64,000 bases of DNA from Candidatus Hydrogenedentota bacterium (GCA_963668025.2 CAXXTH010000017.1:352001-416000), one strand, 5' to 3'. Numbered from the stretch's first letter, positions 321 through 56,609 are shown. Notes: a model not told the origin generated them from the letters alone. Made by a program: numbers and translations.

Positions 321-675
321 GGATTCCGCGCCTCCTTGGGTTATTTCATCTGTACATACTTTCCCTTTTAAGGAGACAACGGAAAAGCAGGCTTCTATTC
401 CAGGAGGTTTCGGAAAAACAGCGGCTCAACGGGTAAAAAAAACTGTGAGTGCCTGCTTATAGGCAAGGACCTGAGAGACATTGCGCTGAAATGACTATCA
501 TCGGGAAACGAGAGTCAGCAGACACCCACAATTATAAATTATACTTTTTTATTCACATGGAATCAAACGCTTTCCTTCAGCCTGGAGCGCCCCTGGCGGG
601 TGTCCATGCTACACCACGTATTCGCGTTCATTCGCGGTTTCTCAAGTTTATCCACCTTGTTGCGGTTATGCCGCG

Positions 676-1080
676 TCAAGATTTCACTTGCTCCTGCTCT
701 GCCCGCCATTTGCGGTATTTACCGATGTCCAGCCGCACCAAAGACAGACAAGCGGTGATGGCCGTCGCGTCGTCGATCAGTCCCACTATGGGCAGAAAAT
801 CCGGGATAAAATCCAGCGGGCTTAATACGTAGAGCAGCGCCGCCACAATGGCGGCGATGGAGCCAAAGGGGACTTCCGTATAGCTTCTTTTCCAATAATC
901 CGAAACCATGCAAAACATATCGCGAATATCTCCGAGCATCTTAAGCAATGAGCCGGAGTGCGCCTTTTTCATAATCTTGTCTTCATTTTTAACGACCTTT
1001 TTGATGTCATCTTCTTTTATCCTTTTAGACCGCTCCTCGATGATCTTTTCACCATCTTCAACGGTATATTTGGCGCTCAT
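676..1080 (-). CDS. YkvA/DUF1232 family membrane protein
   Basis: Motif LLYVLSPLDFIPDFLPIVGLIDD. Confidence 0.9.
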   Translation of the reverse strand: MSAKYTVEDGEKIIEERSKRIKEDDIKKVVKNEDKIMKKAHSGSLLKMLGDIRDMFCMVSDYWKRSYTEVPFGSIAAIVAALLYVLSPLDFIPDFLPIVGLIDDATAITACLSLVRLDIGKYRKWRAEQEQVKS

Positions 1081-1086
1081 ATCATC

Positions 1087-1974
1087 TCATTCTCCCTGTT
1101 GTGTGTCTTTTCCTGCATCCAACAGGCTGGCCATTTGGGCTTCGAGGGTTTGGATGCGGCGTTCCAAGGCTTCGCTGGGGCGTTCATGCTGGATGCGGTG
1201 GGCGAGGCGTTCAGCCATGAGGTCATCTTGGATGAAGAGGCGGTCGGCCCAGACTTTCAAGAGGGTGGCGAGATAGCGGCGGCCCATTTGGCCGATGCTG
1301 AGGCTCGACATGCCCCACGTGCGGCCATACCACGCGATGGGGATCTCGATGATGTTGTAGTTGCGGATGAGGGCGCTGAGGCTCATTTCGATGGTGATGT
1401 TGAAATGGCTCGCGCGGTAGGGGCCGCATTCCTCGATCACATGGGTGCGGTAGGCCTTGAACGCGTTGGTGAGGTCGTTGAACCGGCTCCAGAACAGGAA
1501 CTGGACCATGCGGTTGACGATGCGATTGGCCACGAGCTTGACGATAGGGTATTTGGACACTTTCGAGCCGTGGCGGAACCGGGAGCCGAAGACGCAGTCG
1601 TAGCCCTCCTCGATCTTGGCGTAATAGCGCAGCGCGTCCTGGGGGTCGTCGGACTGGTCGGCCATGTAGATGATGACGAGGTCGCCGGTGACGAGGTCGA
1701 GGCCCGAGCGGATGGCGCGGCCGAATCCGCCGGGGGGCGTGCGGTCGATGGTGCGGATGTGGGGATTCTCCGCCATGAGGCGCTGGATCACCTGGGGCGT
1801 GCCGTCGCTGCTGTTGTCGTTGACGAGGATGAGTTCGTAGGGTATTTCGTTCGGTTCGAGGACGCGGACCAGTTCACCCACGGTGTTTTCGATGTTCTTT
1901 TCCTCGTTGCGCGAAGGAATCACGAACGAGGCCTTGAGGTGGTGCTTTTGGTTGGACATGGCGTACATCTCCAT
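1087..1974 (-). CDS. Glycosyltransferase family 2 (DPM1-like)
   Basis: VIPSRNEE, VNDNSSDGT, GFGRAIRSGL, MADQSDDP and VFGSRF motifs. Confidence 0.9.
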   Translation of the reverse strand: MEMYAMSNQKHHLKASFVIPSRNEEKNIENTVGELVRVLEPNEIPYELILVNDNSSDGTPQVIQRLMAENPHIRTIDRTPPGGFGRAIRSGLDLVTGDLVIIYMADQSDDPQDALRYYAKIEEGYDCVFGSRFRHGSKVSKYPIVKLVANRIVNRMVQFLFWSRFNDLTNAFKAYRTHVIEECGPYRASHFNITIEMSLSALIRNYNIIEIPIAWYGRTWGMSSLSIGQMGRRYLATLLKVWADRLFIQDDLMAERLAHRIQHERPSEALERRIQTLEAQMASLLDAGKDTQQGE

Positions 1975-1975
1975 A

Positions 1976-2545
1976 TTAGAGCGCGTAAAGAAACGGCGAC
2001 AATATCGAGGCCGATCCGCTCACGAGCATAAGCAGCCCAAGCAGCACGAGTGCGAGGACCACCGGGGCGAGCCAGAACAGCTTGCGCGCCCATAAAAAAG
2101 CCCCCAATTCGATCAGCGCATTACGGTGTCCGGACGCGCCGTCCGTCTGCGACTCAGCAGGCTCCCAATAGGTGGGCGCATCGGGCTTCCACCGGCGCTT
2201 GAGCGGATCTTTGCCGAGTAAAGACATCACCGCGCCCATGGGCGTGATAAGCCCATAGAACACCACGGCCAGCGTAGCGCGTGTCATGAACCAATTCAAG
2301 GCGAGGGCGAGCTTGAGCCAGCCCGCGAGCAACGGCATCAGGAGGCCAGGCGTGGCGAGTCCCGCAAGGGCCATGAGCGCGGCTATGTCGATGAAGAGCC
2401 ATGGAGGGCCGCCCATTTCGCCGGCGCGCCAACTGTGGAAGCCCCACCGTAGCAGGCCCAGCACCGCAACTGCCGCTGCCATGACAAGTCCGAACCGGCG
2501 CTGTTCGCGGCGGCTATGGATGTCTATTTCGTCAAACGTGTCCAT
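1976..2545 (-). CDS. SxtJ-family membrane protein fused to a C-terminal DUF5989 (SxtK-like) peptide
   Basis: RRFGL...VFYGLITPMG...GKDPL...TYW (SxtJ), then ELGAFLWARKLFWLAP...SPFLYAL (DUF5989). Confidence 0.8.
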   Translation of the reverse strand: MDTFDEIDIHSRREQRRFGLVMAAAVAVLGLLRWGFHSWRAGEMGGPPWLFIDIAALMALAGLATPGLLMPLLAGWLKLALALNWFMTRATLAVVFYGLITPMGAVMSLLGKDPLKRRWKPDAPTYWEPAESQTDGASGHRNALIELGAFLWARKLFWLAPVVLALVLLGLLMLVSGSASILSPFLYAL

Positions 2546-2692
2546 ACCGTTCTATTGTTCCACCTCTTTCGATTCCGGTGAATCTCGGGCTATACCGAGG
2601 ATATTGTATAGATTGAATCACACATTTGTCTTTTCTATTTCAAATATTATGGATCCTCGTAGTGCAGCATAACCGCAACCAAAGATCCAGAT

Positions 2693-2817
2693 TTCACCAC
2701 GAAATACACGAAACACACTAAAATCTGAAGCTTTGAGAAAGTCCTCCACATAAATATTGCGCTTAAACACGACAATAAGCTGAGTCACTTTAGTGTATTT
2801 CGTGTATTTAGTGGTAA
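2693..2817. repeat. Periodic palindromic element (9-nt-period arms, AT-rich loop)
   Basis: TTCACCACGAAATACACGAAACACACTAAA ... TTTAGTGTATTTCGTGTATTTAGTGGTAA. Confidence 0.85.
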
Positions 2818-2830
2818 AAAAGAGCTTCTT

Positions 2831-2912
2831 ATGGCCGAATTACGATATAAGGAGGAGGTCTTCGCCATCCCTTGCTAATTTCGGCCATCACCCAACGGTG
2901 GCTATCCATGTC
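2831..2912 (+). pseudogene. Internally deleted GxxExxY protein remnant
   Basis: ATG at 2831 gives MAELRYKEEVFAI (GxxExxY-like N-terminus), joined out of frame to LANFGHHPTVAI (GxxExxY-like C-terminal LxNFG motif). Confidence 0.65.
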
Positions 2913-2971
2913 GATAAACTTTCATACGCTGATTCTCCCATCCGCATACCCAAATCCAATGCAATATGCCT

Positions 2972-4783
2972 TTAGTCCAGTTCCAGCGATTCCCGCCAGG
3001 CGTCATCGCGGGGCCAAGGCTCCTGGAGTTCTTTATCCAGCAGAAACGAGCCCATGGCCAGGTAATCCATGTCCGTGCGCATGAAGCACGCATAGGCCTC
3101 GGCGGGCGTGCAAACAATGGGTTCGCCGCGCACGTTAAACGAGGTGTTGATCACAAGGGGGCAGCCCGTGCGCGCGTGAAATGCGGTGATGAGCCGGTGG
3201 TAGAGCGGGTTGTCCGCCGCATCGACGGTTTGAATGCGGGCCGAATTGTCCACGTGCGTCACGGCGGGGATTTCCGAACGCGCCACACGCAGTTTGCCGA
3301 AGCCTTCGGCCTGCTGCTCTTCGGGCGACAAAGCGCGCAGCCGGTCTGCCCGCACGGAAGCCACGAGGAGCATGTAGGGGCTGTCGCACGGCAGCTCGAA
3401 ATATTCCGCCGCGTGTTCGCGCAGCACCGAGGGCGCGAAGGGGCGGAAGGATTCGCGGAACTTTATTTTAAGGTTGAGTTTCGACTGCATTTCCGGCGCG
3501 CGGGGGTCGGCGAGGATACTGCGTGAGCCCAATGCCCGGGGGCCAAATTCCATGCGCCCCTGGAACCAGCCCACGATTTTCCACCGCGCCAGCAGTTCGG
3601 CCACGAGGCGGCACATTTCGCCTTCTTCCAGCCGTTCATAGGGAATTTTGTACGCATCGAGATACGACTGGATGATCTCATCCGAAAAACTGGGGCCGAG
3701 GTACGAGCCTTGCTGTGTACGCGCGCTGGGCGTGCGCGGATGGCCGAGCAATTGATGCCATGCAAACAGGGCGCACCCGAGGGCATTGCCCGCGTCGCCT
3801 GCGGCGGGTTGAATCCACATGCGCTCGAAGGGGCCTTCACGCAATATACGGCCATTGGCGACGCAGTTTAGCGCCACGCCGCCCGCTAGGACAAGATTGC
3901 GCTGGCCGGTCTCCGCGTGGGCCGTCCTCGCCAAACGAAGTACGATGTCCTCGAGCACCACTTGGATGGAACTCGCCAGGTCCATTTCACGCTGGGTGAT
4001 GGGCGATTCGGGCGTACGGGGCGGGCCGCCGAAGAGGTCCGCGAAACGGCGGTTGGTCATGCGCAAGCCCGCGCAATAGTCGAAATACTCCATATTTAGC
4101 CGGTACGAACCGTCGTCCTTGATGTCGGCCAGTTCGCGGCGGATCACGTCCTCGAAACGTGGCTCACCATATGGCGCGAGGCCCATCAGCTTGTATTCGC
4201 CGCTGTTCACGCGGAAACCGGTGAAGTACGTGAAGGCCGAATACAGCAAGCCGAGGGAATGGGGGAACGGGATCTCCTTGGTTAGCTCGATATGATTGCC
4301 CTTGCCGATGCCCTGCGTGGTGGTGGCCCATTCACCCACGCCGTCGAGGGTCAGGATCGCCGCTTCCTCGAAGGGACTCGGGAAAAACGCGGCGGTGGCA
4401 TGGGATTCGTGGTGGGCGCAAAACAGCACTTCGCCGCGATAGCCCAAGGCCCGCCGCAAGGTCCGGCGCATAAACAGCTTATCCTTGAGCCAAGGCGGCA
4501 TCTGCTCCCAGAACGACTGGATGCCCTTCGGGGCCATGGCCAGGTAGGTCATGAGAAGCCGTTCAAATTTGAGAAACGGCTTGTCATAAAAGGCCACGTA
4601 ATCGATGTCATTTATGGTGATGCCGCCCGCCTCGAGACAATACGCCACCGCATGATAGGGAAAGCCAGGGTCATGCTTTTTGCGGGTGAACCGTTCTTCC
4701 TGTGCGGCGGCCACAATCGTGCCATCGCGCAGCAGGCATGCGGCGCTATCGTGGTAAAACGCAGATATGCCAAGTATATACAT
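2972..4783 (-). CDS. O-carbamoyltransferase (NodU/CmcH family)
   Basis: ILGISAFYHDSAACL, EERFTRKKH, HHESH, GEYKLMGLAPYG, GRMEFGPRALG and NTSFNVRGEPIV motifs. Confidence 0.96.
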   Translation of the reverse strand: MYILGISAFYHDSAACLLRDGTIVAAAQEERFTRKKHDPGFPYHAVAYCLEAGGITINDIDYVAFYDKPFLKFERLLMTYLAMAPKGIQSFWEQMPPWLKDKLFMRRTLRRALGYRGEVLFCAHHESHATAAFFPSPFEEAAILTLDGVGEWATTTQGIGKGNHIELTKEIPFPHSLGLLYSAFTYFTGFRVNSGEYKLMGLAPYGEPRFEDVIRRELADIKDDGSYRLNMEYFDYCAGLRMTNRRFADLFGGPPRTPESPITQREMDLASSIQVVLEDIVLRLARTAHAETGQRNLVLAGGVALNCVANGRILREGPFERMWIQPAAGDAGNALGCALFAWHQLLGHPRTPSARTQQGSYLGPSFSDEIIQSYLDAYKIPYERLEEGEMCRLVAELLARWKIVGWFQGRMEFGPRALGSRSILADPRAPEMQSKLNLKIKFRESFRPFAPSVLREHAAEYFELPCDSPYMLLVASVRADRLRALSPEEQQAEGFGKLRVARSEIPAVTHVDNSARIQTVDAADNPLYHRLITAFHARTGCPLVINTSFNVRGEPIVCTPAEAYACFMRTDMDYLAMGSFLLDKELQEPWPRDDAWRESLELD

Positions 4784-4850
4784 GGACTATCCTTGCTCAA
4801 CAGGACGAATAACGGCCCTTCGTTGCGCCAGTGTGCCCCATATAGCCCCT

Positions 4851-4894
4851 AAAAGCAAGGAACCTCTCACCCGTTTCCGGTAGTGAGAGGTTCC
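4851..4894 (-). terminator. Probable intrinsic terminator after rplL
   Basis: GGAACCTCTCAC...GTGAGAGGTTCC stem followed on the minus strand by TTGCTTTT. Confidence 0.6.
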
Positions 4895-4917
4895 CATGCA
4901 ATAGGGCGAACGACGGA

Positions 4918-5310
4918 TCATTTGCCTTTAAGTTCGATAGTAGCGCCGACGGCCTCGAGCTTCTCTTTGATCTCTTTGGCCTCTTCTTCGGTCGCGCCTT
5001 CTTTAACGGCCTTAGGAGCGCCGTCAACCAGATCCTTGGCTTCTTTCAAGCCAAGGCCGGTCATCGCACGCACTTCCTTGATGACCTGGATCTTCTGCGA
5101 ACCAACGTCTTTCAGGATCACGTCGAACTCGGTGGGGCCTTCATCTTCGACGGGCGCGGCAGCGCCGGCCATCGGCATCATGCCGCCCATCATCATGGGG
5201 GCCGCAGCCGTTACACCGAACTTCTCTTCAAACATCTTCACCAATTCGCTGATCTCGAGCACGCTCAGCTCGGACACGCTCTGTACGATGGCTTCTAATT
5301 TCTCCGACAT
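4918..5310 (-). CDS. rplL: 50S ribosomal protein L7/L12
   Basis: MSEKLEAIV...[10 protein letters not shown]...TEFDVIL...[27 protein letters not shown]. Confidence 0.98.
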
Positions 5311-5344
5311 GGCATATATCTCCAATTCCTGTTATAGGGCCGTG

Positions 5345-5878
5345 TTAGGCCGCTTGGGTTTCTTCTTTTTTCTTGCGGATTTGATCCAGCACGTTCACGA
5401 AATCGCGATTCGGCGCGTTGATAACGCTGACGAAATTGCGCAGCGGCATCGAAATGACGCCCACCAACTGGCCCAACAGGGCTTCGCGCGAAGGCAAGCT
5501 CGCCAGGGCGTCTAACTGCTCTTTCGAGATCACTACTCCCTCGAGAACGCCGCCCGCCATGGACACCTTCTCGACTTCTTTATTGTATTCCTTGAGCACT
5601 TTGGCGGGAGCGACCGGATCCGCACAGAAGGCCCATGCCGTCGGGCCCTCGAGATATTTCACCGCACCCGACAAGCCCAATTCATCCAGCGCACGCTTCA
5701 CCAGCGTGTTTTTATACACCTTGAGCAGGACGTTTTCGTCGCGCAGTTTCTTGCGCAAGACCGTGGACTGCAAGGCATTGATGCCGATGAAGCGCGTGGC
5801 GATAGCCACCTTGCTTTGTTGCAGCCGATCCTTAAACTCCTGAATGGCTTGTTCTTTTTCTTGCGTCGGCAATTGCAT
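5345..5878 (-). CDS. rplJ: 50S ribosomal protein L10
   Basis: LRKKLR...KVYKNTLVKRAL...GPTAWAF...LASLPSREALLGQL; directly upstream of rplL. Confidence 0.97.
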   Translation of the reverse strand: MQLPTQEKEQAIQEFKDRLQQSKVAIATRFIGINALQSTVLRKKLRDENVLLKVYKNTLVKRALDELGLSGAVKYLEGPTAWAFCADPVAPAKVLKEYNKEVEKVSMAGGVLEGVVISKEQLDALASLPSREALLGQLVGVISMPLRNFVSVINAPNRDFVNVLDQIRKKKEETQAA

Positions 5879-5899
5879 TCACCTCCCTTCGGCCTGCAC

Positions 5900-6022
5900 A
5901 TAAAAAAACCGCACCGTCTGAAGACAGTGCGGGACAGATCACAGTTGTGTATATCCGTCCGTGCTCCCAGTCTCGGCAGGCAGAGATTAAGGCCTATAGG
6001 CCGCCGGCTGTCTTCGACGTGA
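5900..6022 (-). promoter_or_regulatory. Ribosomal protein L10 leader (autoregulatory RNA) with attenuator hairpin
   Basis: Minus strand GTCGAAGACAGCCGGCGG...TTAA...CCTGCCGAGAC, followed by CCGCACTGTC-TTCA-GACGGTGCGG-TTTTTT before the rplJ RBS. Confidence 0.8.
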
Positions 6023-6048
6023 ACATCGGATGACCGATTTATGAGGAA

Positions 6049-6078
6049 ACCTTATCAAATCCAAAACTAGAAAGTCAA
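6049..6078 (-). promoter_or_regulatory. Sigma70-type promoter of rplJL
   Basis: TTGACT-N18-TAAGGT with an extended TG. Confidence 0.5.
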
Positions 6079-6264
6079 GAAATCAACATCGCTTGCAGCG
6101 GTGAAGAATAGCGGCGCCCCAGGGTCAGGCGTTGAGGTGATGCGGGTTAGACGGGGGGTGGCGAGGCCGACAGGCGACAGGAGGGGCAGCGGCTGTGCGT
6201 AAAGCCGGTGAATGGATGGGCGAGACGTGTAGGGCGGCGGCGCAACCGGGAACGCGCGGGCGCC

Positions 6265-7701
6265 CTATGCGGAACTGAAGCGGATCTGGATGGCCTCGGT
6301 GCAGAGGGCGTCATATTGTTCGCGGGACAGGGTGGCGTTGCGCAGGGCTTCGAGGAGGCGATGGGCAAGGTTTCTGGCGGAGCCAAAGCCTTTTGGAAAG
6401 TGGGCGGCCAGAAGGCTGCCATCCTCCAGGAGTTGCATGAGCAGATGGGCTATCTGCATCAAGAGGTAGTAGATCTTGCTGGCCTGTTCGTTTTGGGTAT
6501 AGGCGTGTTCGAGGTTGTAGCCGCCGTTTTTCTGCACGTTGAATGCTTCATTTTCAATCTTCCAGCGTAAGCGTCCTCCTTCATTGGCCAAGGCGGCCGC
6601 ATTGTGCGCGGATACGGATACGTTGGTCACCCATTTGAACTTGGTTTTCTTTATCATGCCTTCCGCGTCCGGGCGGGTGTCCACGCATTCGAGCACGGAC
6701 AGGATGTGTTCACGCCGCTCGGAATCGCGGTAGGGGATGTCGTTGACCCAGCGAAACTGCTGGTGGATTTCCTTCTTGTTGCCGCAACGCCACGTAAGCT
6801 GGTTTTCGGGCGTCGCGGCCGCGAGGCTCTCGAATTCTTCGTTCACGGTGGCCAATTGGCCGTCCGTGAGCGTAATCATGAACTTCCAGCCATATTGCTG
6901 GCACAGCCGAAACACCGGTCCCGTGGCGTACAGGCCGTCCATCGCCAACAGCAGCGGCAAGCGGGGGAATCGGGCATGCAGGCGTGGGGCCAGCCGGTAG
7001 AAGGCTTTGGTCTCGCAATCCTGCTTGCGTTGTTGCTCGCTTTTCGCCAGGTCTTTCTCTGGATTCTCAATGAACTCCGTCATGAGCGAAAAGACCCACC
7101 CGTTTGGCGTGACGATCTTGGACTCCAGCACGGGATGGTAGTAGGTGATCTTGCCGCTCTTGTGCTTGCGCGTGAGGCAATGGGCGCAGTGGCGATGATC
7201 ATAACTGCGTGTCCCCGTGGCGTCGATGGCCGCCACGTAGTAGCGCCCGAACAGGCGGTGGGGGTACAACACCTTCTTGTCGATGAGCGTCTGCGTCATG
7301 CCGGAAACGAGTTCCTGGACCGCCTCGAACGGCAAACCGCGAAATACCCCGTTCATCGTATCGCCATGCGGCACGCTGTCCACGTCAAACAAGACCTTGT
7401 ACAGATGGACCATGAACGTCGTGTACAACTGCAGGCGGACTTGCCGGCGCGCCCCGAGCCGGCATGCGAACATCAGCACTCCCAAGAACACCAGCGACGC
7501 GACACTGTAGTCCACGTCGCCGGCTTGCTCGGGTTTGCGGGGATCGGGCAAGCCCGCAAAGCGCTTGCGCACCGGGCCAAAGAAGTGGGTGAACGTCCTC
7601 AAGAAGGCCCGGATGATTTCCGGATGCTCTTCTTGCGGGTTTGCAGGAACTGCCGTTGGGCCGCGCCCATGGCCTCGACGAGCTTCTTGAGCTTTTTCCA
7701 T
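6265..7701 (-). CDS. DDE transposase
   Basis: LPDPR, PHGDT, AIDATG, KQDCE, MDGLY and GRLRWKIENEAFN motifs. Confidence 0.92.
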   Translation of the reverse strand: MEKAQEARRGHGRGPTAVPANPQEEHPEIIRAFLRTFTHFFGPVRKRFAGLPDPRKPEQAGDVDYSVASLVFLGVLMFACRLGARRQVRLQLYTTFMVHLYKVLFDVDSVPHGDTMNGVFRGLPFEAVQELVSGMTQTLIDKKVLYPHRLFGRYYVAAIDATGTRSYDHRHCAHCLTRKHKSGKITYYHPVLESKIVTPNGWVFSLMTEFIENPEKDLAKSEQQRKQDCETKAFYRLAPRLHARFPRLPLLLAMDGLYATGPVFRLCQQYGWKFMITLTDGQLATVNEEFESLAAATPENQLTWRCGNKKEIHQQFRWVNDIPYRDSERREHILSVLECVDTRPDAEGMIKKTKFKWVTNVSVSAHNAAALANEGGRLRWKIENEAFNVQKNGGYNLEHAYTQNEQASKIYYLLMQIAHLLMQLLEDGSLLAAHFPKGFGSARNLAHRLLEALRNATLSREQYDALCTEAIQIRFSSA

Positions 7702-7946
7702 TCCTCAATCCATTGCGCCACTTCGCGGCGCAATTCACGGGGCACGTGGAGGGTGCGGGTCTTCCCGCCCTCCTTCCACGTCAGCAGGGCCGTTTCATGG
7801 ATCGGCCCTTCCTGGACGCACCGGCAGCGCGGGTTCCCGCAGCGGCTGCGGGTGATGGTGAGCGTGGCGGGAAGAAAGGGCCCCAGACGCGCCAGGCGCG
7901 CCTGGACCTTGCGTCCCGCCGAGTTCGTGACAGGTTTCCCTTCCAT
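7599..7946 (-). CDS. DUF6788-family small Cys/His protein within the IS
   Basis: ATLTITRSRCGNPRCRCVQEGPIH...WKEGGKTRTLHVP. Confidence 0.8.
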   Translation of the reverse strand: MEGKPVTNSAGRKVQARLARLGPFLPATLTITRSRCGNPRCRCVQEGPIHETALLTWKEGGKTRTLHVPRELRREVAQWIEEWKKLKKLVEAMGAAQRQFLQTRKKSIRKSSGPS

Positions 7947-8183
7947 GTACGGAAGTATATATACTTCCGTACCAGAAGTCAACAAAAAAAAGCGCCGATG
8001 CGAAGAAAAAACTCCCCGCACCGGCGCATCCTCAACTCATTCAACTGCTTCTACGCGAAAAAAAAGCGGTTCTTCACCGCTGCATCGCTTGGGCCTGCAT
8101 GGATTGCGAACGGCGCATGCTCCTGCTTCAGCCAGCCACCGGGATGCCCAAAAACTTGCCAAGAGGCATCTCTCGATGCTCAT

Positions 8184-8218
8184 AAAGAGGAGGCCCCCGC
8201 ACGAGAGGCCTCCTCTTT
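8184..8218 (-). terminator. Hairpin terminator downstream of the EF-hand gene
   Basis: AAAGAGGAGGCC...GGCCTCCTCTTT. Confidence 0.55.
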
Positions 8219-8245
8219 GGCTAAAACGCTCTCTGAAGTCTGGCT

Positions 8246-8839
8246 TTACCCATTATCTTCGGACGCGGTGCTGGCACTATCTCCCTGGGTTGCGTCCTGT
8301 GGGCCGCCAGGCCCGCCCGGGCCGCCGGGACCATGAGGGCCGCGAGGCGGGTGGGCTTCTTGCCAAGTTTTAAACTCTTCGAGCGTTAGCGCGCTATTCT
8401 TGTCTGCGTCCATCTCGTCAAATTGCGTCGAGGGATCGCCGCCAGGCCCCATGCCTTCTGGGGGGCCGCCAGGGCCGCGCCGCTGGCCTTTGCCTTGTTC
8501 GCAAGCGCCTTTGTCTTGTTCATCGCCTGGGGGTGGAGCCATGCCTTCCGGACCGCCCGGGCCGCCTGGACGCGGATTGGCTTTGTGCCACGCCACAAAT
8601 TCTTCCTTAGTCACGGCGCCGCTCGAATCGGTATCCATGGCGTTGAACATCGCCGTAAAATCCGGCTTCGGCGGCGGTTGCGGAGTTGTTGCATCCGTGG
8701 TGGTTGTTTCCGTGGTGGTGCTCCCGGTGTCGGCAGCCCACACGGCGTTCATCACGGTGGGGCTTAAGGCGAACCCCGCAAGCAGCGCCGCGCCTATGGC
8801 GGCGTAAGAAAGTAAGCGCGTTTTCGTTTTCTCGTACAT
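8246..8839 (-). CDS. Secreted EF-hand protein with Gly/Pro-rich linkers
   Basis: Signal peptide; two EF-hand loops, DTDSSGAVTKEE and DADKNSALTLEE. Confidence 0.85.
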   Translation of the reverse strand: MYEKTKTRLLSYAAIGAALLAGFALSPTVMNAVWAADTGSTTTETTTTDATTPQPPPKPDFTAMFNAMDTDSSGAVTKEEFVAWHKANPRPGGPGGPEGMAPPPGDEQDKGACEQGKGQRRGPGGPPEGMGPGGDPSTQFDEMDADKNSALTLEEFKTWQEAHPPRGPHGPGGPGGPGGPQDATQGDSASTASEDNG

Positions 8840-8954
8840 AACACAAACCTCCTTCGGTTGGTTATCATCCGTATTGGTTCAATTCGTCTTGCGGGCCTCT
8901 TTGCCCGCCATCCAAAGCTTACCTTGCCAACATGACAGCGGCATGGTCGTTCAC

Positions 8955-8970
8955 ATTACATGAATGTAAT
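8955..8970. promoter_or_regulatory. Cop/Cus-box-like response-regulator site
   Basis: Near-palindrome ATTACATGAATGTAAT between the divergent EF-hand and response-regulator genes. Confidence 0.55.
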
Positions 8971-9016
8971 CTTCGTGATGGCGCATGAAGCAGTGCGGCA
9001 TGATATACTGCGGGGC

Positions 9017-9691
9017 ATGAGAGTGCTGGTCGTAGAAGATGAAAAACAGATAGCGTCTTTCGTACGTAAAGGCCTGGAGGAGCAAGGCTTTGACGTGCAG
9101 GTCTGCGGCAATGGCGACGAGGCGTATGCGATCGCGGTTACGCAGCCGTTTGATGTGCTCGTCCTAGATATCATGCTGCCCGGCCGCGATGGACTCAGCA
9201 TCCTAAAGAATCTCCGCAAGCAAAAAAATCCCGTGCCGGTCATTTTGCTTACGGCCCGCTCCGAGTTGGATGAACGTATAGAAGGCCTCGAGCTGGGCGC
9301 TGATGACTACATGACAAAGCCGTTTTTCGTCGAAGAACTCGTGGCGCGCATTCATGCGGTCGTGCGCCGAACGGCGGGCGAGGGACTGAGCATCTTGAAT
9401 GCAGGCGGATTATCGGTGAACCTGCTTTCCCGCGAAGCGAAACATAATGGGGAGCCGGTCCACCTTACCGTCCGGGAATTCAGCTTGCTCGAATATCTCA
9501 TGCGCGCCCCGGGCCGCGTATTCACCCGCACGCAGATCCTCGAACATGTATGGGGGTATGATTTCGACCCCAACACCAATCTCGTGGATGTGCATATCCA
9601 GCGCTTGCGCAAAAAGATCAGTGCGGACTCTTTCGAGCGCTACATCGAGACCGTGCGCGGCGTGGGATACCGTTTCCGCAAAATGCCCTGA
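9017..9691 (+). CDS. OmpR/PhoB-family response regulator (CusR/CopR-like), probably leaderless
   Basis: MRVLVVEDE, LDIMLPGRDG, GADDYMTKPF, VWGYDFDPNTNLVDVHIQRLRKK, ETVRGVGY; TG-A-TATACT lies 7 nt before the ATG. Confidence 0.95.
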   Translation: MRVLVVEDEKQIASFVRKGLEEQGFDVQVCGNGDEAYAIAVTQPFDVLVLDIMLPGRDGLSILKNLRKQKNPVPVILLTARSELDERIEGLELGADDYMTKPFFVEELVARIHAVVRRTAGEGLSILNAGGLSVNLLSREAKHNGEPVHLTVREFSLLEYLMRAPGRVFTRTQILEHVWGYDFDPNTNLVDVHIQRLRKKISADSFERYIETVRGVGYRFRKMP

Positions 9692-9701
9692 GCAGGAGTT
9701 C

Positions 9702-10472
9702 CTATCTCGAACCGCCATGCCGTTCAAGGCGGAAGGCTTCCCCATCCCACACGACATATGATTGGTGATTCATCCAATCGCCAGTATTGATGTATAGCCG
9801 TACTCCATGTGGTGTGGAGATGTGTTCCAGCATCGGATGATGGCTATGCCCGCACATGACCACGTCCGCTTCATCCCGTTCGAGGACGCCGCGCGCGAAA
9901 CGCAGCAACGCCTCGACTTCCGGCCCCTTGCTAAGGTCTTCCGCGCCGAACATGTGGCGGCTGCCCCGGGATACTCTCTGGGCGAGCGCCATGGCCCAAT
10001 CGGGATGAAGCAGTCGAAAAAGGCCGATTACGAGCGGCGCGCGGGCAATGCGCTTATAAATCCGGTAGGCCCGGTCCTCGGGATTGATGCCATCGCCGTG
10101 GGCGAAAAGCACGCGCTGGCCGCCAAAATCCAGTGTTACCGGTTCGCAATGAATCTCGAATCCCAGGTAATCCCGTAAAAAGCGTCCCGCCCAAAAATCA
10201 TGGTTGCCACACACGAAATGGAACGCCATGCCATGATCGCGCAGATCCACGAAGGCCCGCAATACATGAAAATAGTCCGAAAAAATCACATGGCGGTACT
10301 CGAACCAAAAATCAAAGAGATCGCCCAACAGAATCATCCGCTGGAATCGGGCGGGATCGACGCCACGGAGAAAGGCCGTGAAATGCTCCATGTTTTCCCG
10401 TCCGTCGGGGGCCACATTGAGATGGATATCCGACAAGATCAAGGTGTTCTTGGCGGGGAACAGGCCGGTCAT
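9702..10472 (-). CDS. lpxH: UDP-2,3-diacylglucosamine diphosphatase (LpxH-like metallophosphoesterase)
   Basis: SDIHL, GDLFDFWFEY, GNHD, HGD and GHSH motifs. Confidence 0.85.
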   Translation of the reverse strand: MTGLFPAKNTLILSDIHLNVAPDGRENMEHFTAFLRGVDPARFQRMILLGDLFDFWFEYRHVIFSDYFHVLRAFVDLRDHGMAFHFVCGNHDFWAGRFLRDYLGFEIHCEPVTLDFGGQRVLFAHGDGINPEDRAYRIYKRIARAPLVIGLFRLLHPDWAMALAQRVSRGSRHMFGAEDLSKGPEVEALLRFARGVLERDEADVVMCGHSHHPMLEHISTPHGVRLYINTGDWMNHQSYVVWDGEAFRLERHGGSR

Positions 10473-11116
10473 TTGAGGAAGCCGAATTTGCTCAGTGGCC
10501 AGAAACGGAGGACGGCCTTGCCCACGATAGCTTTGTCGTGGATAGCTTTAAAACTCCGGCTGTCCTTGCTGACGCTTCGGTTATCACCCAAAACATAATA
10601 CTCACCTGTCGCCAGTCGGACCTCGGGATCGCGTTCCCGCCTGTCCATGGCGTCTTTAGGGAGATAATTTTCTTCAACAGGATGATTATCGACAAATACG
10701 CGCCCTTCCGCGATACGGACCGATACATAGGGCTCCGCGGATTCTTGAGCGCCCACGACATTGCCCCGGGGTGCGGGCGGGCCTTCCGCGATCACCCGCT
10801 TCACATACCGTTTATTGGAGCTGTCGGGGCTGTCGAAAATGATAATGTCCCGGGGCTTGATGGCTTGGACGCCGCCCAGGAGCCCCATGCTGCTCAATAA
10901 GTGGGGCAATTTAAAAACGAGTATCTGGTCGTTTTCCTGAAGCGTGGGCAGCATGGACTCGCCTTGAACTTCATATCCTTCAATGACGAATGATTTGAGC
11001 ACGATGAAAATCGCTAGGAACAGCACGACGAGCTTCACGAGTTCACGCACTTCGCGTTTCAACTCGCGCTTCACTTCATCCGGAGTCTTTTCCGTGCTCG
11101 ATGGGTTCCCGTTCAC
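10469..11116 (-). CDS. lepB: Signal peptidase I
   Basis: GESMLPTL, YVKRVIA, GDNRSVSKDSR and RFWP motifs. Confidence 0.95.
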   Translation of the reverse strand: MNGNPSSTEKTPDEVKRELKREVRELVKLVVLFLAIFIVLKSFVIEGYEVQGESMLPTLQENDQILVFKLPHLLSSMGLLGGVQAIKPRDIIIFDSPDSSNKRYVKRVIAEGPPAPRGNVVGAQESAEPYVSVRIAEGRVFVDNHPVEENYLPKDAMDRRERDPEVRLATGEYYVLGDNRSVSKDSRSFKAIHDKAIVGKAVLRFWPLSKFGFLK

Positions 11117-11120
11117 CTGT

Positions 11121-11750
11121 TCATGTTCCTTTTTGCCGGCAGGGCGCTACTTGAAATCTACCATGCTTCAAGGCCTTCTGCAAATCCGGCATGTTTTGTA
11201 TGGGGTCGAGAAACTCCGTCGTGAAACGCCCCACGTCACGCAACACATGGGCGTCGCTCGCGGCAATTCCTGGAACCCGAACGGTTTGGGCGATCTTGGC
11301 CGCGAGTTTGCGTTCATGCTCTTGCATGTTCACGCTGCACACTTCCATGGCAGCCAGCTTGAGTGTCAGAAGCCGTTCGTCAAAACCCATGCCCGCTCGA
11401 GTAGGATGGGCCGCCACACATACCGCGCCAAATTCATGGGCGATGCGAATGGCCTCGGCGGGCTCCCAGCCGCGCTTGAAAGACGCCACGGCGTGGGCCG
11501 GAACGCCATATATCAGCAGATCGCCTTTGTTCGATGTATACTCGAAACCAGAAAGCACTAGAAAACCAAGATGCCCGGATTGCTTCACTAGCGCGTCCAG
11601 TTCATCTTGCGGCCATTGCTGGTGGTGTTCCGTTATGACCAGCCCATCCACGCCCGCCGCAATGGCTTGGGCGATAAGCCGGGAGGGGTCAATCTGGCTG
11701 CAAGCCGAATACCGTTTCGTATGCAGATGGATATCGAGAAATAGCCCCAT
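11121..11750 (-). CDS. PHP domain phosphoesterase
   Basis: DIHLHT, ITEHH, AHP and SDAH motifs. Confidence 0.9.
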   Translation of the reverse strand: MGLFLDIHLHTKRYSACSQIDPSRLIAQAIAAGVDGLVITEHHQQWPQDELDALVKQSGHLGFLVLSGFEYTSNKGDLLIYGVPAHAVASFKRGWEPAEAIRIAHEFGAVCVAAHPTRAGMGFDERLLTLKLAAMEVCSVNMQEHERKLAAKIAQTVRVPGIAASDAHVLRDVGRFTTEFLDPIQNMPDLQKALKHGRFQVAPCRQKGT

Positions 11751-11757
11751 GCGCCGC

Positions 11758-12858
11758 CTATGCCCGAGAACCTGCCGTTAGCCCGAGCACGGCTGGGATC
11801 GGCGAATCCGTACGATAACGCGGAACCAGTATTTCCTGGCCGCCCACCAATTGCCGTGCGAGGAACAAAATAGATGCGGGATGAACATAGGCCAGTTCTT
11901 TAAGGTATTGCCACCACGCACCTCCCTGGATAACGCGGCCGAGCAACATGGCGGTCACGCGCATGGGATCGCCGCCGAGCTGGGCTTCCATATTTTCCGC
12001 TAAGACGGCTCCCGAACGCTCTCCTTCTTCCAAGATGTGCTGGAGGCGTTGCTGAATATCTTGGGCCAAATGGCACGCATCGTGATACCGTTGAAGAAAT
12101 TCACCCCAGCCGGGATCACGCTGGCGCACGATTTCATTGAGCAATCCCACTTGCACCTCCAGCGGGCGCTCCTCGAGGGCCGCCGCCGCATGGGGGCTTA
12201 AAAGCAAATAAGAAAAGGCCATGCGCAGGAAATGGCTGGCCTCTTGCATGGGCAGGCTGTCTTCAGGGCGCTGGGGATACTCGCCATGCAGCATCAAAGC
12301 GCGCTTTTGGAAGTCCGGCACCAGGGGCAATGGTTCCGGGAAAGCGGCATAATTGTATTCCAGCCCGCTGGCTATCAGGTAGCCCCGTGCGGCTTTCACG
12401 AAGTTTTTCGCGTCGAGCGCCGCTTCCGCTTGCCGGTAGAATTCTTCTTGCATGCGCCCACGCACGCGCAACAACTCATAGGCTTGGGCCGCACTGGTGT
12501 ATTTGCCCAGCCGCACCGCGTTGTCGGCTAAGAGCATGAGCAATTCCGACGGAAGCCGGGCGGGACGGTCTGCTTTGAGTTCTTGTTGAATATGCGCCCA
12601 TGTCTGCCGCTCTTGAACCCGTTTGAGGATTTCTCGAAACGCATAAGTTTCTTCTTCTTGCCCGGGCAGCAGATAAGCATATTTGGGTGAATCAAAAAAC
12701 TCGGTTTCACTACCGCGCGCGGGCGAAAACGGCATGAACAAAAGCCGGAAATTGACAATATCGCCATCGGCTATCGCCTTCGCCAGTGCCTTCGCCACGA
12801 TTTCGGGCTCTGGCGCTACTAGGTCTTCCGCTTTTTTTTTGCGCCGCAGCCATGCCAT
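11758..12858 (-). CDS. Hypothetical alpha-helical protein
   Basis: Long ORF starting MAWLRRKKK, closely following the J-domain gene. Confidence 0.7.
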   Translation of the reverse strand: MAWLRRKKKAEDLVAPEPEIVAKALAKAIADGDIVNFRLLFMPFSPARGSETEFFDSPKYAYLLPGQEEETYAFREILKRVQERQTWAHIQQELKADRPARLPSELLMLLADNAVRLGKYTSAAQAYELLRVRGRMQEEFYRQAEAALDAKNFVKAARGYLIASGLEYNYAAFPEPLPLVPDFQKRALMLHGEYPQRPEDSLPMQEASHFLRMAFSYLLLSPHAAAALEERPLEVQVGLLNEIVRQRDPGWGEFLQRYHDACHLAQDIQQRLQHILEEGERSGAVLAENMEAQLGGDPMRVTAMLLGRVIQGGAWWQYLKELAYVHPASILFLARQLVGGQEILVPRYRTDSPIPAVLGLTAGSRA

Positions 12859-12860
12859 AC

Positions 12861-13445
12861 CTAATTCCTCTCCGCCAAAATAGCTGCTACAGTCTTTGCC
12901 CGCTCCTCCCAGTTCACTTGAGGCGGCGTGACATGCACATATGGCAGCCGCTCGAGTATCTGCTGGTAGAGTGTTTGCCGGTAATGCCGCAAAATACGGA
13001 AGGCATGGCGTTCGTGCGCCATGTCCCAATTGCTGGCCTCGACGCATTCTTTATTGCGTCCGGCATCGAGCATGGTTTCTTCGATATACCGCGACAGAAA
13101 ATCCCGAATCCGGCGGTCAAAATCACGGCGAAGCTGTTCCGCCTCCGGCTGCCCGGCTTCAACCGCGGCGCACCAAGCTGCTTCAAGCTCTATCAGGCCG
13201 TTGCGCTCATTCCAGTACGCTTCGCGCAACGCACTATCGCTCAAGATCATAAACGCCGCGTTGAGCTGGGCCATTTCGAGCAGATACCGCGAACGCCGCT
13301 CTTCGGTAATCTCGACTTCGGCGATTTCGCACACGAGATTCTTCATGCGCCGCCGGTACTCTTTGCGCACTTCGCCAGGCTTCGCATCTATGGGAAGGCC
13401 CAGTATGGCGAAATAATCGATGTATCCGTCTTCTCGATTTTCCAT
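12861..13445 (-). CDS. J-domain-like (DnaJ-type) protein lacking HPD
   Basis: DYFAILGL...EVRKEYRRRM...MAQLNAAFMILSDSALREAY. Confidence 0.75.
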   Translation of the reverse strand: MENREDGYIDYFAILGLPIDAKPGEVRKEYRRRMKNLVCEIAEVEITEERRSRYLLEMAQLNAAFMILSDSALREAYWNERNGLIELEAAWCAAVEAGQPEAEQLRRDFDRRIRDFLSRYIEETMLDAGRNKECVEASNWDMAHERHAFRILRHYRQTLYQQILERLPYVHVTPPQVNWEERAKTVAAILAERN

Positions 13446-13521
13446 GAATCACCTATGTTTTGGCCGAACCCGTATTGTAGACGCTCGATACCCCTCGGGA
13501 CAAGGCCGGCGGCCTAAACCC

Positions 13522-13591
13522 GCAGCCTGGGCGTCTCGCCCATGAAAAGTAGGCGCCAGCGCGTGCAACATGGGCGGGACGCCCATGCTAC
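13522..13591. repeat. REP doublet (REPIN-like)
   Basis: GCAGCCTGGGCGTCTCGCCCATG ... CATGGGCGGGACGCCCATGCTAC as an inverted pair. Confidence 0.8.
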
Positions 13592-13638
13592 GTTCGAGAA
13601 TCATCGGGCTGTTTATTTGCCATATCGCTGGGTGTCCT

Positions 13639-16107: not shown

Positions 16108-16340
16108 CCAACGGGCTATAGCATACCGCGTATTCCACCCGGATGGGAATAGGCGCAGGGCCCCCCTTGTTTACATTAAACAGAGCGGGAATTTCTGGGC
16201 TCCCCCCGGCCCATCCCGCTCCTTCCCGCCTATTCTTGCTTAGAAGCGCCTCACCAGCGGGTGAGGCGCTTCCCCCCAACACAAGAAACGCAAAAACAAA
16301 TTCGCAACACTACATACAGTCGGCTGAAGTAAGATCCATT

Positions 16341-16482
16341 TTTTAGACAGGATTTACAAGATGAGAGAAGATCGCAACGATTCTCTGTAAAGCTATACGA
16401 GGAAGACTCCAAACGTGTTTTTTTACGTGGCGGAATTGCCATCAAATAAAAATCTTGTCAATCCCGCAAATCCGGCCTAAAA
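16341..16482. repeat. Degenerate periodic palindromic element
   Basis: TTTTAGACAGGATTTACAAGATGAGAGAAGAT ... ATCTTGTCAATCCCGCAAATCCGGCCTAAAA. Confidence 0.65.
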
Positions 16483-16513
16483 GAATCCTCCCATGAACGG
16501 AGGTTGGCCTGGC

Positions 16514-16543
16514 ATTCGCATTCATTCGCGTCTATTCGCGGTT
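16514..16543. repeat. Solo arm of a 10-nt-period repeat
   Basis: ATTCGCATTC-ATTCGCGTCT-ATTCGCGGTT; a related solo arm lies at 620-639. Confidence 0.65.
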
Positions 16544-16621
16544 CAAAAATGGACTCCATGGCCCTTATGGGATACAATTCCGCCCGATAAATGCAATCGC
16601 CCCATGTCAAGGAGAAATTTC

Positions 16622-18023: not shown

Positions 18024-18029
18024 CCATTT

Positions 18030-18062
18030 CCCGTGGCATGGGCGGGATCGCCATGCCACGGG
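18030..18062. repeat. REP-like hairpin after cysS
   Basis: CCCGTGGCATGGGCGGGATCGCCATGCCACGGG. Confidence 0.6.
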
Positions 18063-18186
18063 AGCTAGTTTTTTCACCAATAGGTGAGAGCGATGCTGGC
18101 AACGCGGAGGGAATCTTTGCCGTGAACAGGCGGCGTTCTTAGGAATGGGCAAGAATCCCATGCTTCTAATCTGGCGATTTGGATAG

Positions 18187-18214
18187 GGAACCAAACGAGT
18201 CACATCGTGTTTAA
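18187..18214 (+). promoter_or_regulatory. ECF-type (autoregulatory) promoter
   Basis: GGAACC-N16-GTTTAA upstream of the ECF sigma gene. Confidence 0.6.
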
Positions 18215-18229
18215 CTTCATGGAAGCAAG

Positions 18230-34341: not shown

Positions 34342-34401
34342 CCACAAAAGGCTCAAAAACACAAGAGAGAGATTCTTTACGCCCACGTGCGCCTTCTGTG
34401 G
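34342..34401. repeat. Degenerate periodic palindrome
   Basis: CCACAAAAGGCTCAAAAACACAAGA ... CGTGCGCCTTCTGTGG. Confidence 0.6.
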
Positions 34402-34488
34402 CGAAATGACCGCCATATGGCTGGCCGAGATTCGATTCGTAGTCCTGCGCGGTTTAGGGTAAAATAGTAGAAAAGGAATCCGTGGAGT

Positions 34489-36584: not shown

Positions 36585-36705
36585 GGGATGCTGCTCCTTT
36601 GGTTGCATGTCCGGGCGCAAATGCTATACGCAGGATTATCGCGCCACTTTCGTACAGTTTCTTCAACAAGATACAAATCATTTAATATAGATACGCGGAG
36701 AACTG

Positions 36706-36766
36706 GCCACGAAAGGCGCAAGAGCCACCGCAGAATGATTTTTGCGTTTCTTGCACCTGTTGTGGC
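36706..36766. repeat. Periodic palindrome
   Basis: GCCACGAAAGGCGCAAGAGCCACCGCAGAA ... TTTTGCGTTTCTTGCACCTGTTGTGGC. Confidence 0.65.
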
Positions 36767-36859
36767 GTATCACGTTTTTTCTGTTTTTATATGTGATTAC
36801 CCCGAATATACGTATTTCACTTGGCAACTGGTGGGGCAAGCCCCACCCACATGCTTGCG

Positions 36860-41860: not shown

Positions 41861-41875
41861 ACATGGCCAAATGGC

Positions 41876-52512: not shown

Positions 52513-52529
52513 GGCTTTCTCTCCCTTAG

Positions 52530-52577
52530 GTACCATGGCCGTCCCAGCCATGCGCATGGGCGGGACGCCCATGCTAC
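52530..52577. repeat. REP doublet within the acs operon
   Basis: GTACCATGGCCGTCCCAGCCATG-CG-CATGGGCGGGACGCCCATGCTAC; the right unit is identical to 13569-13591. Confidence 0.8.
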
Positions 52578-52616
52578 GGTATTCAAGATCATGAGCCGCT
52601 CTAGCAAAAAATGGCG

Positions 52617-54289: not shown

Positions 54290-54318
54290 ATGCCTCGCTT
54301 TCTTATGGGCTCCCGCCG

Positions 54319-55386: not shown

Positions 55387-55455
55387 AGTTTGCTCTCCTT
55401 ACTGCTTTGCGTTTCAGCAGGGCGTCTATTATCCGAAATAGGCCCCGGGGCCCCA

Positions 55456-56259
55456 TTATACCAGCTTGGCTTCACTTCCAATGCGCGCTTTAGCGCTCTC
55501 CCACAACTCCTCAAATACGCCTCTTAGCCGTTCATCGGCGATATCCACCAGCGGTGCGCTGTCGCGGTCCGCCCGGCGAATCGTTTCGTCATACGGCAGC
55601 CAGCCCAGCACATCCTCGCCCGCGCACGCTTGCGTGATGAACGCATGGTCTTCCGGCGACGCGATTTTATTGGCGATGACCGCCACGCGCTGGACGCCGA
55701 TCTCCGCCGCCATGCGCCGCACCGCCGCTGCTGTTTCGACCGAACGCGCGCCGGGCTCCACCACCACCACCATGAGGTCCACGCCCTTGGCCGTCGCCCG
55801 GCCCAAATGCTCCAGGCCCGCTTCGAAATCAATAATGACGCAATCGTCTTTATACAGAATCACGTCCGTCATCAACGCCCGCAGCATCACGCTCTCGGGG
55901 CACGCGCACCCCGAGCCGCCGCTCTCGACCGCTCCCAACACCAGCAGATGAATGCCCCGGAATGAAGCCGATTCCTGTTCGGCGATATCCGACACATGGG
56001 GATTGAGTTTGAAAATTTGGCCGTATTGCTTGACCTTCGCGCCCGTGCGCTCCTCGATAAGGGCGCGCCGCTCCGAGAGGGGGATGATCGCGTTACGGCC
56101 TTCCAGAGGCATGCCGAGGGCCTCCGCCAGGTTCGCATCCGGATCAGCGTCCACCGCCAGCACGCGCAACCCTTCGGCAGCCGCCAAATGGGCGAACATC
56201 GCCGCGATAGTGGACTTGCCCACGCCGCCTTTGCCGCTGACCGCGATCTTGAATCCCAT
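55456..56259 (-). CDS. cooC: CooC nickel-insertion ATPase (second paralog)
   Basis: GKGGVGKS, DADPDANL, GCACPE and DFEAGLEHLGR motifs. Confidence 0.93.
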   Translation of the reverse strand: MGFKIAVSGKGGVGKSTIAAMFAHLAAAEGLRVLAVDADPDANLAEALGMPLEGRNAIIPLSERRALIEERTGAKVKQYGQIFKLNPHVSDIAEQESASFRGIHLLVLGAVESGGSGCACPESVMLRALMTDVILYKDDCVIIDFEAGLEHLGRATAKGVDLMVVVVEPGARSVETAAAVRRMAAEIGVQRVAVIANKIASPEDHAFITQACAGEDVLGWLPYDETIRRADRDSAPLVDIADERLRGVFEELWESAKARIGSEAKLV

Positions 56260-56326
56260 GAAGGCCCTTTCTGCTGGGCGGGATTTATAAACTCATCACA
56301 TCACATCACATCAACCCAGCCTCAAA

Positions 56327-56355
56327 ATGGTATCCCAATCATGGCGCGGCGTCAA
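56327..56355 (-). promoter_or_regulatory. Sigma70 promoter of the cooC-acs operon
   Basis: TTGACG-N17-TACCAT. Confidence 0.6.
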
Positions 56356-56436
56356 ACATATTAATTTTTGATTCCGTATTACTGGCTCGCCCTGATTTCT
56401 AGGGCTCTATCCACTGAGATCGTTGTGAGAATCAGA

Positions 56437-56609
56437 TTTTCACCACGGGGGCACGGGGAACACAGGGGAGGTGTTCTGTAGTTATTTTTCCATTGAAGCG
56501 ATGTCTCGGATATATTTAGAGGCATGAATAAAGCATAACTATTGAGCGTATTATTTTAAGCGACTGCATTTTAAGCCGCCCCGTGTTCCCCGTGCCCCCG
56601 TGGTGAAAA
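56437..56609. repeat. Periodic palindromic element with a 27-bp perfect stem
   Basis: TTTTCACCACGGGGGCACGGGGAACAC ... GTGTTCCCCGTGCCCCCGTGGTGAAAA around an AT-rich loop of ~110 nt. Confidence 0.9.

Follow-up and report, generated by a model that had tools for sequence, protein, structure and literature searches.

The window analysed here is a stretch of 64,000 nucleotides (nt) from Candidatus Hydrogenedentota bacterium (C17:352001–416000 of a 6.15-Mb assembly with 24 contigs and a completeness of 93.75%). It harbours several copies of a dispersed repeat, in which arms made of three short tandem words are arranged as inverted repeats around a spacer (foldbacks), and, next to one of them, the remnant of a gene for a protein of the GxxExxY type (TIGR04256, PF13366). 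This article deals with the relationship between these repeats and the GxxExxY genes in the genome and across the phylum. Positions without a contig label are window coordinates; C-numbers denote contigs of the source genome (G000), G-numbers genomes, f families, and L-numbers loci or cassettes across the phylum.

Foldback 1 (2692–2819) and foldback 2 (56437–56609) rank first in strength among the window's inverted repeats within 250 nt (Table 1). Each of their arms is 31 nt long and consists of a T-run, then CAC, and then three units of 8–10 nt; the arms are 90% complementary with a gap of 66 nt in foldback 1 and 97% complementary with a gap of 111 nt in foldback 2. Folded as single-stranded DNA, the two elements have z-scores of −5.8 and −9.2, respectively, and in neither case did any of 200 dinucleotide shuffles fold equally well. 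The initial annotation of the window had listed seven sites as one dispersed family of palindromes with arms of about three tandem units, had pointed out that the two best copies have common ends, and had seen the same sequence in front of two of the copies. The tandem units can indeed be read in both best copies, which share ...AGATTT(T)CACCACG at the start and GTGGT(G)AAAA at the finish, and AAGATCCA sits directly before both 2692 and 16339. With respect to the palindromes themselves, the folds at 2692 and 56437 stand, and the pair at 16339 turned out to be decayed, the whole element (16339–16485) folding no better than shuffled sequence (z = −1.8). Inverted pairing of the arms is thus intact at two sites and decayed at a third, and the arms at 16513 and 620 are solo.

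Table 1. Repeat modules and the gene remnant in the window
Feature	Position	Strand	Basis or relationship
Two-unit fragment of a CGCGAAT-type arm	620..641	+	
Leader module (...GCAGCATAACCGCAACCAAAGATCCAGA)	2664..2691	+	Listed genome-wide as C17:354676
Arm A of foldback 1: T-run and words CACGAAAT, CACGAAAC, CACTAAA	2692..2722	+	Homologous to arms of the C18:314710 cassette
Spacer of foldback 1	2723..2788	+	Homologous to the spacers of both foldbacks around the intact GxxExxY gene C18:314710–315054
Arm A′ of foldback 1	2789..2819	+	Inverted-repeat search, fold
Internally deleted GxxExxY gene remnant	2831..2906	+	Homology with the C18 cassette
Arm A of decayed foldback, ACAAGAT/ACATGAT word family	16339..16372	+	blastn-short matches
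Decayed partner arm A′ of the 16339 foldback	16448..16485	+	Read in the sequence
Solo arm of the CGCGAAT word family, A′ orientation, A-run at the end	16513..16549	+	
Weakly periodic hairpin, membership uncertain	36706..36766	.	Fold z = −3.35
Arm A of foldback 2: T-run and CACGGGGG, CACGGGGAA, CACAGGG	56437..56467	+	Inverted-repeat search, fold
Spacer of foldback 2	56468..56578	+	Read between the arms, fold
Arm A′ of foldback 2	56579..56609	+	Inverted-repeat search; GGGG-type word

Most of these sites have many relatives in the genome. With blastn-short, 81 other matches are found for 16334–16380, 64 for 16505–16550, 37 for 610–650 and 15 for the GGGG-type segment 56432–56475. The hairpin region 36700–36770 has only two weak matches, and 34336–34406 has none and folds like its shuffles (z = −0.43). 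Five of the seven listed sites (2692, 56437, 16339, 16513 and 620) are therefore members of multi-copy families; 36706–36766 is weak and its membership is left open, and 34342–34401 is unsupported.

The size of the family becomes apparent in a word-blind scan of the genome for three 8-mers spaced 8–10 nt with at least 20 of 24 matches, which finds 573 three-unit arms. Of these, 545 are on contigs of 100 kb or more, versus 41 in an order-3 Markov control of those contigs, an excess by which chance or low complexity as the source of the arms is rejected. In the window the threshold is reached by the arms 2697–2722, 2788–2814, 16513–16541, 56444–56468 and 56578–56603, and the arm 16346–16372 has 18 of 24 matches. 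A profile of the arms with CAC words retrieves 182 arms at E ≤ 1, of which 126 have E ≤ 0.01. The arms are preferentially intergenic: 370 of the 573 lie outside greedily called open reading frames (ORFs), though these make up 88.9% of the DNA. The arm consensus is a T-run followed by three words of 8–10 nt, roughly YRC-RRRR (Y, pyrimidine; R, purine). About 423 arms sort into 13 word families, among them ACAAGAT (86 arms), CACTAAA/CACGAAA (55), CGCAAAG (52), CGCGAAT (48), CACAAAG (33), CGCAGAG (29), CACGAAG (24) and CACGGGG (24). The arms either face inward across a spacer of 40–200 nt, stand back to back around a central TCCGGA, or are solo. In Rfam the elements reach the threshold of no family, the only models found being those of eukaryotic microRNA precursors, far below threshold; the sole match at gathering level in the window is the L10 leader. 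An intrinsic terminator was also considered and rejected: the T-run precedes the stem, and a terminator search finds none at the element. The elements in the window are gene-less or decayed copies of this superfamily of tandem-word foldbacks.

How the foldbacks are connected with GxxExxY genes can be read from the first copy. By blastn, foldback 1 is 87.5% identical over 120 nt, and 83% over 175 nt, to a cassette in which an intact GxxExxY gene (C18:314710) lies between two foldbacks, and which carries the same CACTAAA/CACGAAA word. Positions 2696–2906 align with this cassette in the order arm, spacer, arm, first 15 codons of the gene and about 30 nt of its 3′ end. Homology runs to 2868, and 2877–2906 corresponds to the 3′ end of the gene at 90% identity, so that the remnant consists of the start and 15 codons (stop at 2876–2878) fused to 2877–2906. 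A second foldback was not found after the remnant. From this alignment it follows that the first copy represents the upstream foldback of a cassette with an internal deletion in its gene. Other arms in the window likewise have their counterparts around GxxExxY genes: 16339–16372 matches the arms at C17:83206 and C23:139531, both with the ACAAGAT word, at 88–96%, and the cassette C17:511067, with the CGCGAAT word, has arms matching 16513–16549 at 93.5% over 31 nt and 620–641 at 92% over 25 nt. Hence, for three of the four word families in the window there is an intact cognate GxxExxY gene elsewhere in the genome.

The TIGR04256 profile matches 15 places in the genome, corresponding to approximately 12 loci, and 10 of 12 loci are flanked by inverted tandem-unit arms. 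A flanking inverted repeat with a score of at least 16 is present at 8 of the 12, compared with 25 of 1,500 random ORFs; with a strict arm caller, arms are found on both sides of 7 of the 12 and of 25 of 4,739 other ORFs (Fisher p = 2.4 × 10⁻¹³). A possible role of GxxExxY nucleases had been suggested in the initial annotation, with enrichment of the repeats next to their genes as a check; the enrichment and the cognate words support a tie between the repeats and these genes. About 6 of 13 GxxExxY loci in the genome, the remnant in the window included, are decayed. At least seven pairs of word and gene exist side by side in this one genome, which is therefore a natural test bed for specificity.

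The GxxExxY protein has only about 125 amino acids. Five of the proteins match PF13366 (PDDEXK_3) with E-values from 1e-33 to 2e-42, and the scores with TIGR04256 are 126–141 bits. Paralogues are only 33–36% identical, yet they keep G-x-G, E, Y, D, E-x-K, Q and Y, residues that are invariant in 35 sequences and include the putative catalytic D69, E79 and K81. The fold model (mean predicted local-distance difference test, pLDDT, 95.4) is that of a minimal PD-(D/E)XK core, its nearest folds being Cas4, Hjc and lambda exonuclease with template-modelling scores (TM-scores) of 0.5–0.6; a sequence search of the chains in the PDB gave no match. The protein is thus a predicted minimal PD-(D/E)XK nuclease with an intact D...ExK motif. 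In the part of the 2012 survey of PD-(D/E)XK proteins that covers it, PF13366 is listed with function unknown (PMC3424549). No link to repeats was found in the literature on GxxExxY, PF13366 and TIGR04256 as far as consulted, nor is the family tied to repeats in the accessible parts of that survey and of a preprint on reverse-transcriptase classification.

If the foldbacks were selected as structured RNA or DNA, e.g., as stabilisers of mRNA, terminators or regulators, selection should act on the paired stem. Favourable to this explanation are the strong predicted stems of the two best copies, the intergenic location, and a density of arms per kb of spacer that is two-fold lower between divergent genes (0.23) than between tandem (0.47) or convergent genes (0.44). 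The arms themselves tell otherwise. It had been claimed for this window that the arm interiors differ between copies in a compensated way so that pairing is maintained; this had to be given up. Among arms with CAC words, the closest match to an arm is rarely the arm with which it is paired (2 of 29 inward and 1 of 19 back-to-back pairs); identity is 0.82–0.84 with the partner versus 0.94 with the best non-partner. Within arms the words repeat exactly and the linkers vary freely. For example, of 30 AGAG-type arms, 22 have an identical second word and 28 an identical third word, and the second linker occurs in at least eight forms. What is conserved is the word on both arms rather than the stem of each copy, and foldbacks 1 and 2 differ because they belong to separate word subfamilies, GAAA-type and GGGG-type, not because of compensation copy by copy. 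Moreover, the linkers of partner arms differ, solo arms are common, the T-run stands before and not after the stem on both strands, Rfam offers no family at threshold, and the nuclease gene inside the cassettes would be left unexplained. A function of the paired stem is thus improbable. Conservation of the word fits a word-reading protein better than an RNA stem.

The association is not confined to one genome. Of 135 genomes from the phylum, 112 encode GxxExxY proteins. When the best-scoring locus was taken from each of 30 other genomes, a flanking inverted repeat with a score of at least 16 was present at 27 of the 30 (same random ORFs as above), and the strict caller passed both sides at 19. 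The words at these loci include CACAGAG, CACGAAG, CACAAAG, CACGGAG, CGCGAAT and CACAGAT. There are two layouts, arm-gene-arm and foldback-gene-foldback; the proximal arm tends to end at most about 60 nt before the start codon, and the downstream arm to begin at most about 70 nt past the stop codon. Each lineage of the protein has its word. The word labels of 37 proteins require 17 changes on their tree, as compared with a mean of 25.9 after shuffling (0 of 200 shuffles as low); the clade of 22 proteins that is starred in the tree has exclusively words of the CAC-RRAG type, and one clade unites four CGCGAAT proteins from other genera. It should be noted that co-inheritance alone would yield part of this signal. 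The persistence of non-coding words across genera does, however, speak for constraint on the words.

A model of the arms, which covers CAC words only, has matches in at least 107 of the 135 genomes, up to 46 candidates per genome having been scored. According to a hand count, 97 genomes have gene and arms, 15 only the gene, 10 only arms and 13 neither, which corresponds to an odds ratio of 8.4 (p = 2.8 × 10⁻⁵; kinship uncorrected, relatives not being independent).

Whether gene and arms belong to one unit can be seen from orthologous sites. The comparisons cover six cassettes of relatives, the window's own copies lying outside them: the nearest genomes compared with the window are from other genera, with flanking genes 64–75% identical and synteny absent, a scan of metagenomes with the neighbouring PIG-L protein gave 73% amino-acid identity as best match, and among contigs from four sequencing runs compared with positions 1–20000 none bridges an element. 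Of 14 informative comparisons in congeners, the gene is present in 2 (G071 at L053, G041 at L048) and absent in 12. Seven of these 12 sites are clean and empty, without any arm, namely L026 in G084, G085, G088, G091 and G092, L041 in G022, and L048 in G039. For example, at the exact point where G087 has an insert of 533 bp with both arms and the gene, the stop of one neighbouring gene directly adjoins the start of the next in G088. Gain and loss thus concern the cassette and its arms as a whole. Gene-less arms are present in four cases: a single foldback of the same word at L032 in G048, with flanks 93% identical to those of the foldback-gene-foldback in G028; a foldback of another word at L053 in G072 (CGCGAAG, versus the CACAGAG cassette of G070); and, at L048, solo arms of another word in G040 and G042, at the site of the G038 cassette. 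At L025 the gene is absent from G118; the division into empty sites and gene-less arms covers the other 11 sites. The same intergenic site, directly past a stop codon, can thus hold elements of different words in congeners (L053 versus L181; L048 versus L184 and L186), which suggests that the site is a hot spot for insertion or that elements replace one another.

From all this we consider it somewhat better than an even bet (about 0.55) that gene and arms together form a selfish mobile cassette, the copying of which is driven by a nuclease that reads the word. The nuclease of the cassette would recognise the three words in each arm, and its cutting would promote copying, either by cut-and-paste or by break-induced copying. 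The gene-less foldbacks, which far outnumber the genes, would be non-autonomous derivatives. Recombination between the two foldbacks on either side of a gene, which are direct repeats, would generate them on the spot, and the cognate nuclease would spread them, or keep them uniform, in trans. In the wider sense, GxxExxY proteins may be the mobilising enzymes of a widespread, undescribed selfish element, moving themselves, the foldbacks and perhaps arm-bounded cargo, with protein lineage and word diversifying together; for this extension we would put the chances a little below even.

Several observations speak against a mobile cassette of this kind. The GGGG word of 56437–56609 and the word families CACGAAG, CGCAGAG, CACAGAT and CACAAGA have no cognate GxxExxY gene in the assembly (completeness as above), and the intact gene C10:1219644 has no arms. 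At the level of the phylum there are the 10 genomes with arms and no gene and the 15 with the gene and no CAC-type arm. The family f13 is the clearest case, in which 6 of 10 genomes have CAC-word arms and none has the GxxExxY gene; a renewed search of five gene-negative, arm-positive genomes (three of f13, two of f1) retrieved no GxxExxY protein at E = 0.01. The f13 genome G078 has its arms in tandem arrays at contig ends (L167–L170), with a repeat length of about 195 bp; every unit contains a back-to-back pair of CACAGAG arms around an A-rich loop. Finally, the empty sites gave no sign of a target-site duplication, the flanks being 70–93% identical so that short duplications could hide. Of the two signs that the initial annotation had proposed to look for in sister genomes, empty alleles were thus encountered, for cassettes of relatives, and target duplications were not.

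These observations also bear on the opposite order of events, in which the arms stand on their own as the primary repeat, comparable to a satellite or to repetitive extragenic palindromic (REP) sequences, and GxxExxY genes home into them as guests, the gene-less copies being the targets. The arms of f13 in the absence of the gene, with their arrays of arm-bearing units, the small number of genes relative to gene-less copies, and the gene-less arms at the orthologous sites in G048, G072, G040 and G042 would all be understandable in this way. Orphan repeats that have outlived the loss of their gene would explain f13 too, however. The seven empty sites are without arms, so the cassette must have arrived or left together with them, and the homology between the spacers of the window copy and the C18 cassette is what copies of one unit are expected to show. 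We therefore regard the gene as guest as unlikely.

Could the foldbacks be ordinary miniature inverted-repeat transposable elements (MITEs) of a DDE insertion sequence, or REPINs (doublets of REP sequences) served by a REP-associated tyrosine transposase (RAYT), a Y1 transposase? The genome has 20 matches to Y1_Tnp, some of them RAYT-like with their own flanking REPs, and there is one MITE-like form, a GAAG-type composite of about 235 bp with at least 15 copies at 85–92% identity, e.g., C10:529060–529286 (L056). Against such an origin, three-word arms occur within 600 nt at none of four inspected Y1 loci, of which two RAYT-like ones have other palindromes, and a transposase family is matched by none of the 29 arm-flanked ORFs other than GxxExxY; these encode housekeeping, membrane or unknown proteins and include PdxJ, ArgRS, aspartokinase, sulfatases, a Toll/interleukin-1 receptor (TIR) protein of the CAP12/Pycsar type and membrane proteins without a family. 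Target-site duplications are not visible at the boundaries of copies either. This explanation is highly improbable. The sites in the window belong to a mostly gene-less dispersed family that is separate from the REPs of the genome, as had been assumed from the outset.

As for the Y1 genes themselves, nine copies of 163 amino acids with near-equal scores (e.g., C8:17897–18250) resemble an active element of the IS200/IS605 type; three more loci are more diverged, and the two RAYT-like ones inspected each have their own flanking palindromes. GC-rich palindromes at 13521–13595 and 52530–52578, unrelated to the word arms, belong to a family that also has matches beside C8:160731 and is probably an ordinary REP of this genome. 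A distinct family of periodic palindromes, inverted arrays with a 7-nt unit of the GGGTCTA/GGGTTTA type, is found at C10:169558–169670 and C17:285754–285863.

The word arms are also combined with other repeats. The AAGATCCA mentioned above is the terminal part of a leader module (...GCCGCAACCAAAGATCCGGA), and a leader motif, CAACCAAAG, precedes arms of three word families, of the CACTAAA, CACGAAG and CGCGAAT types. Leader, CACTAAA arm and a GTAG-footed REP hairpin form a core with about 100 copies, which is followed by a tail in about 40; examples are L054 (C12:197700–198200) and L055 (C17:183450–183950). In the 235-bp composite the spacer of the GAAG-word foldback holds a second word array of the CACAGATG type. 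Since leader, arm, REP hairpin and tail combine in this way, the arms are modules in mosaics similar to bacterial interspersed mosaic elements (BIMEs). Back-to-back pairs of arms bound slots of 1–1.7 kb at C18:136452–143889, C23:323152–328133 and C17:1301521–1303490 (L058, L141, L145 and L146), the contents of which are not nucleases: paralogous membrane proteins without Pfam family, the CAP12/Pycsar-type TIR protein, and proteins with weak similarity to Nuc_deoxyrib_tr. In the window, cysS (16493–18023) is split over two overlapping frames, ORF 16493–16972 matching positions 2–100 of tRNA-synt_1e and ORF 16830–18023 positions 99–300, as a result of a frameshift or a sequencing error.

Because these repeats fill a sizeable share of the intergenic DNA and also sit inside operons, effects on gene expression, genome rearrangement and breaks in assemblies are possible. 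For PF13366/TIGR04256, a large family, the tandem words in inverted arms, one word per lineage, provide a substrate that can be tested, and, if the mobile cassette is real, the family would have its first function.

We found no printed description of an element made up of such a repeat and such a nuclease, and each known system shares only some of its properties. In the nucleases of the Cas4/RecB type and Hjc (4ic1, 4r5q, 2wiw) the PD-(D/E)XK core with the catalytic D...ExK is the same; identity is only 12–21%, however, at the TM-scores given above, and the GxxExxY protein has no iron-sulfur or additional domain and another genomic context. Free-standing homing endonuclease genes, including those of PD-(D/E)XK type, are likewise small nuclease genes that are present or absent at a fixed site and often decay; I-Bth0305I, a PD-(D/E)XK homing endonuclease, is at rank 50 in the fold search. 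Here, in contrast, the repeat arms travel with the gene, hundreds of gene-less arm copies exist in the genome, and the seven empty alleles have no recognisable palindromic site, the site in G048 having a single foldback. With MITEs and their parent insertion sequences the foldbacks have in common that they are short, dispersed, bounded by terminal inverted repeats, and found in gene-carrying and gene-less forms; they differ in that no transposase family lies between the arms, the only associated protein being one of 125 amino acids with a nuclease fold. The closest analogue is the REPIN-RAYT system (REPtron), in which, in the parts of the publications consulted (PMC3337134; PMC3116915), REP doublets are associated with the REP-associated tyrosine transposase. 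In both there are hundreds of short, intergenic, non-autonomous inverted repeats with a spacer, each population is matched to a small enzyme gene flanked by the repeats, and several populations occur in one genome. As far as these parts of the publications go, no component is homologous: the enzyme has the PD-(D/E)XK fold here and is an HUH/Y1 transposase there, and the arms are three tandem words with a T-run here and a single short hairpin there; furthermore, the genes are here often multi-copy and often decayed. If the interpretation is correct, the foldbacks and their GxxExxY nucleases would define a second bacterial partnership of repeat and enzyme beside REPIN-RAYT, similar in organisation and built from wholly different parts.

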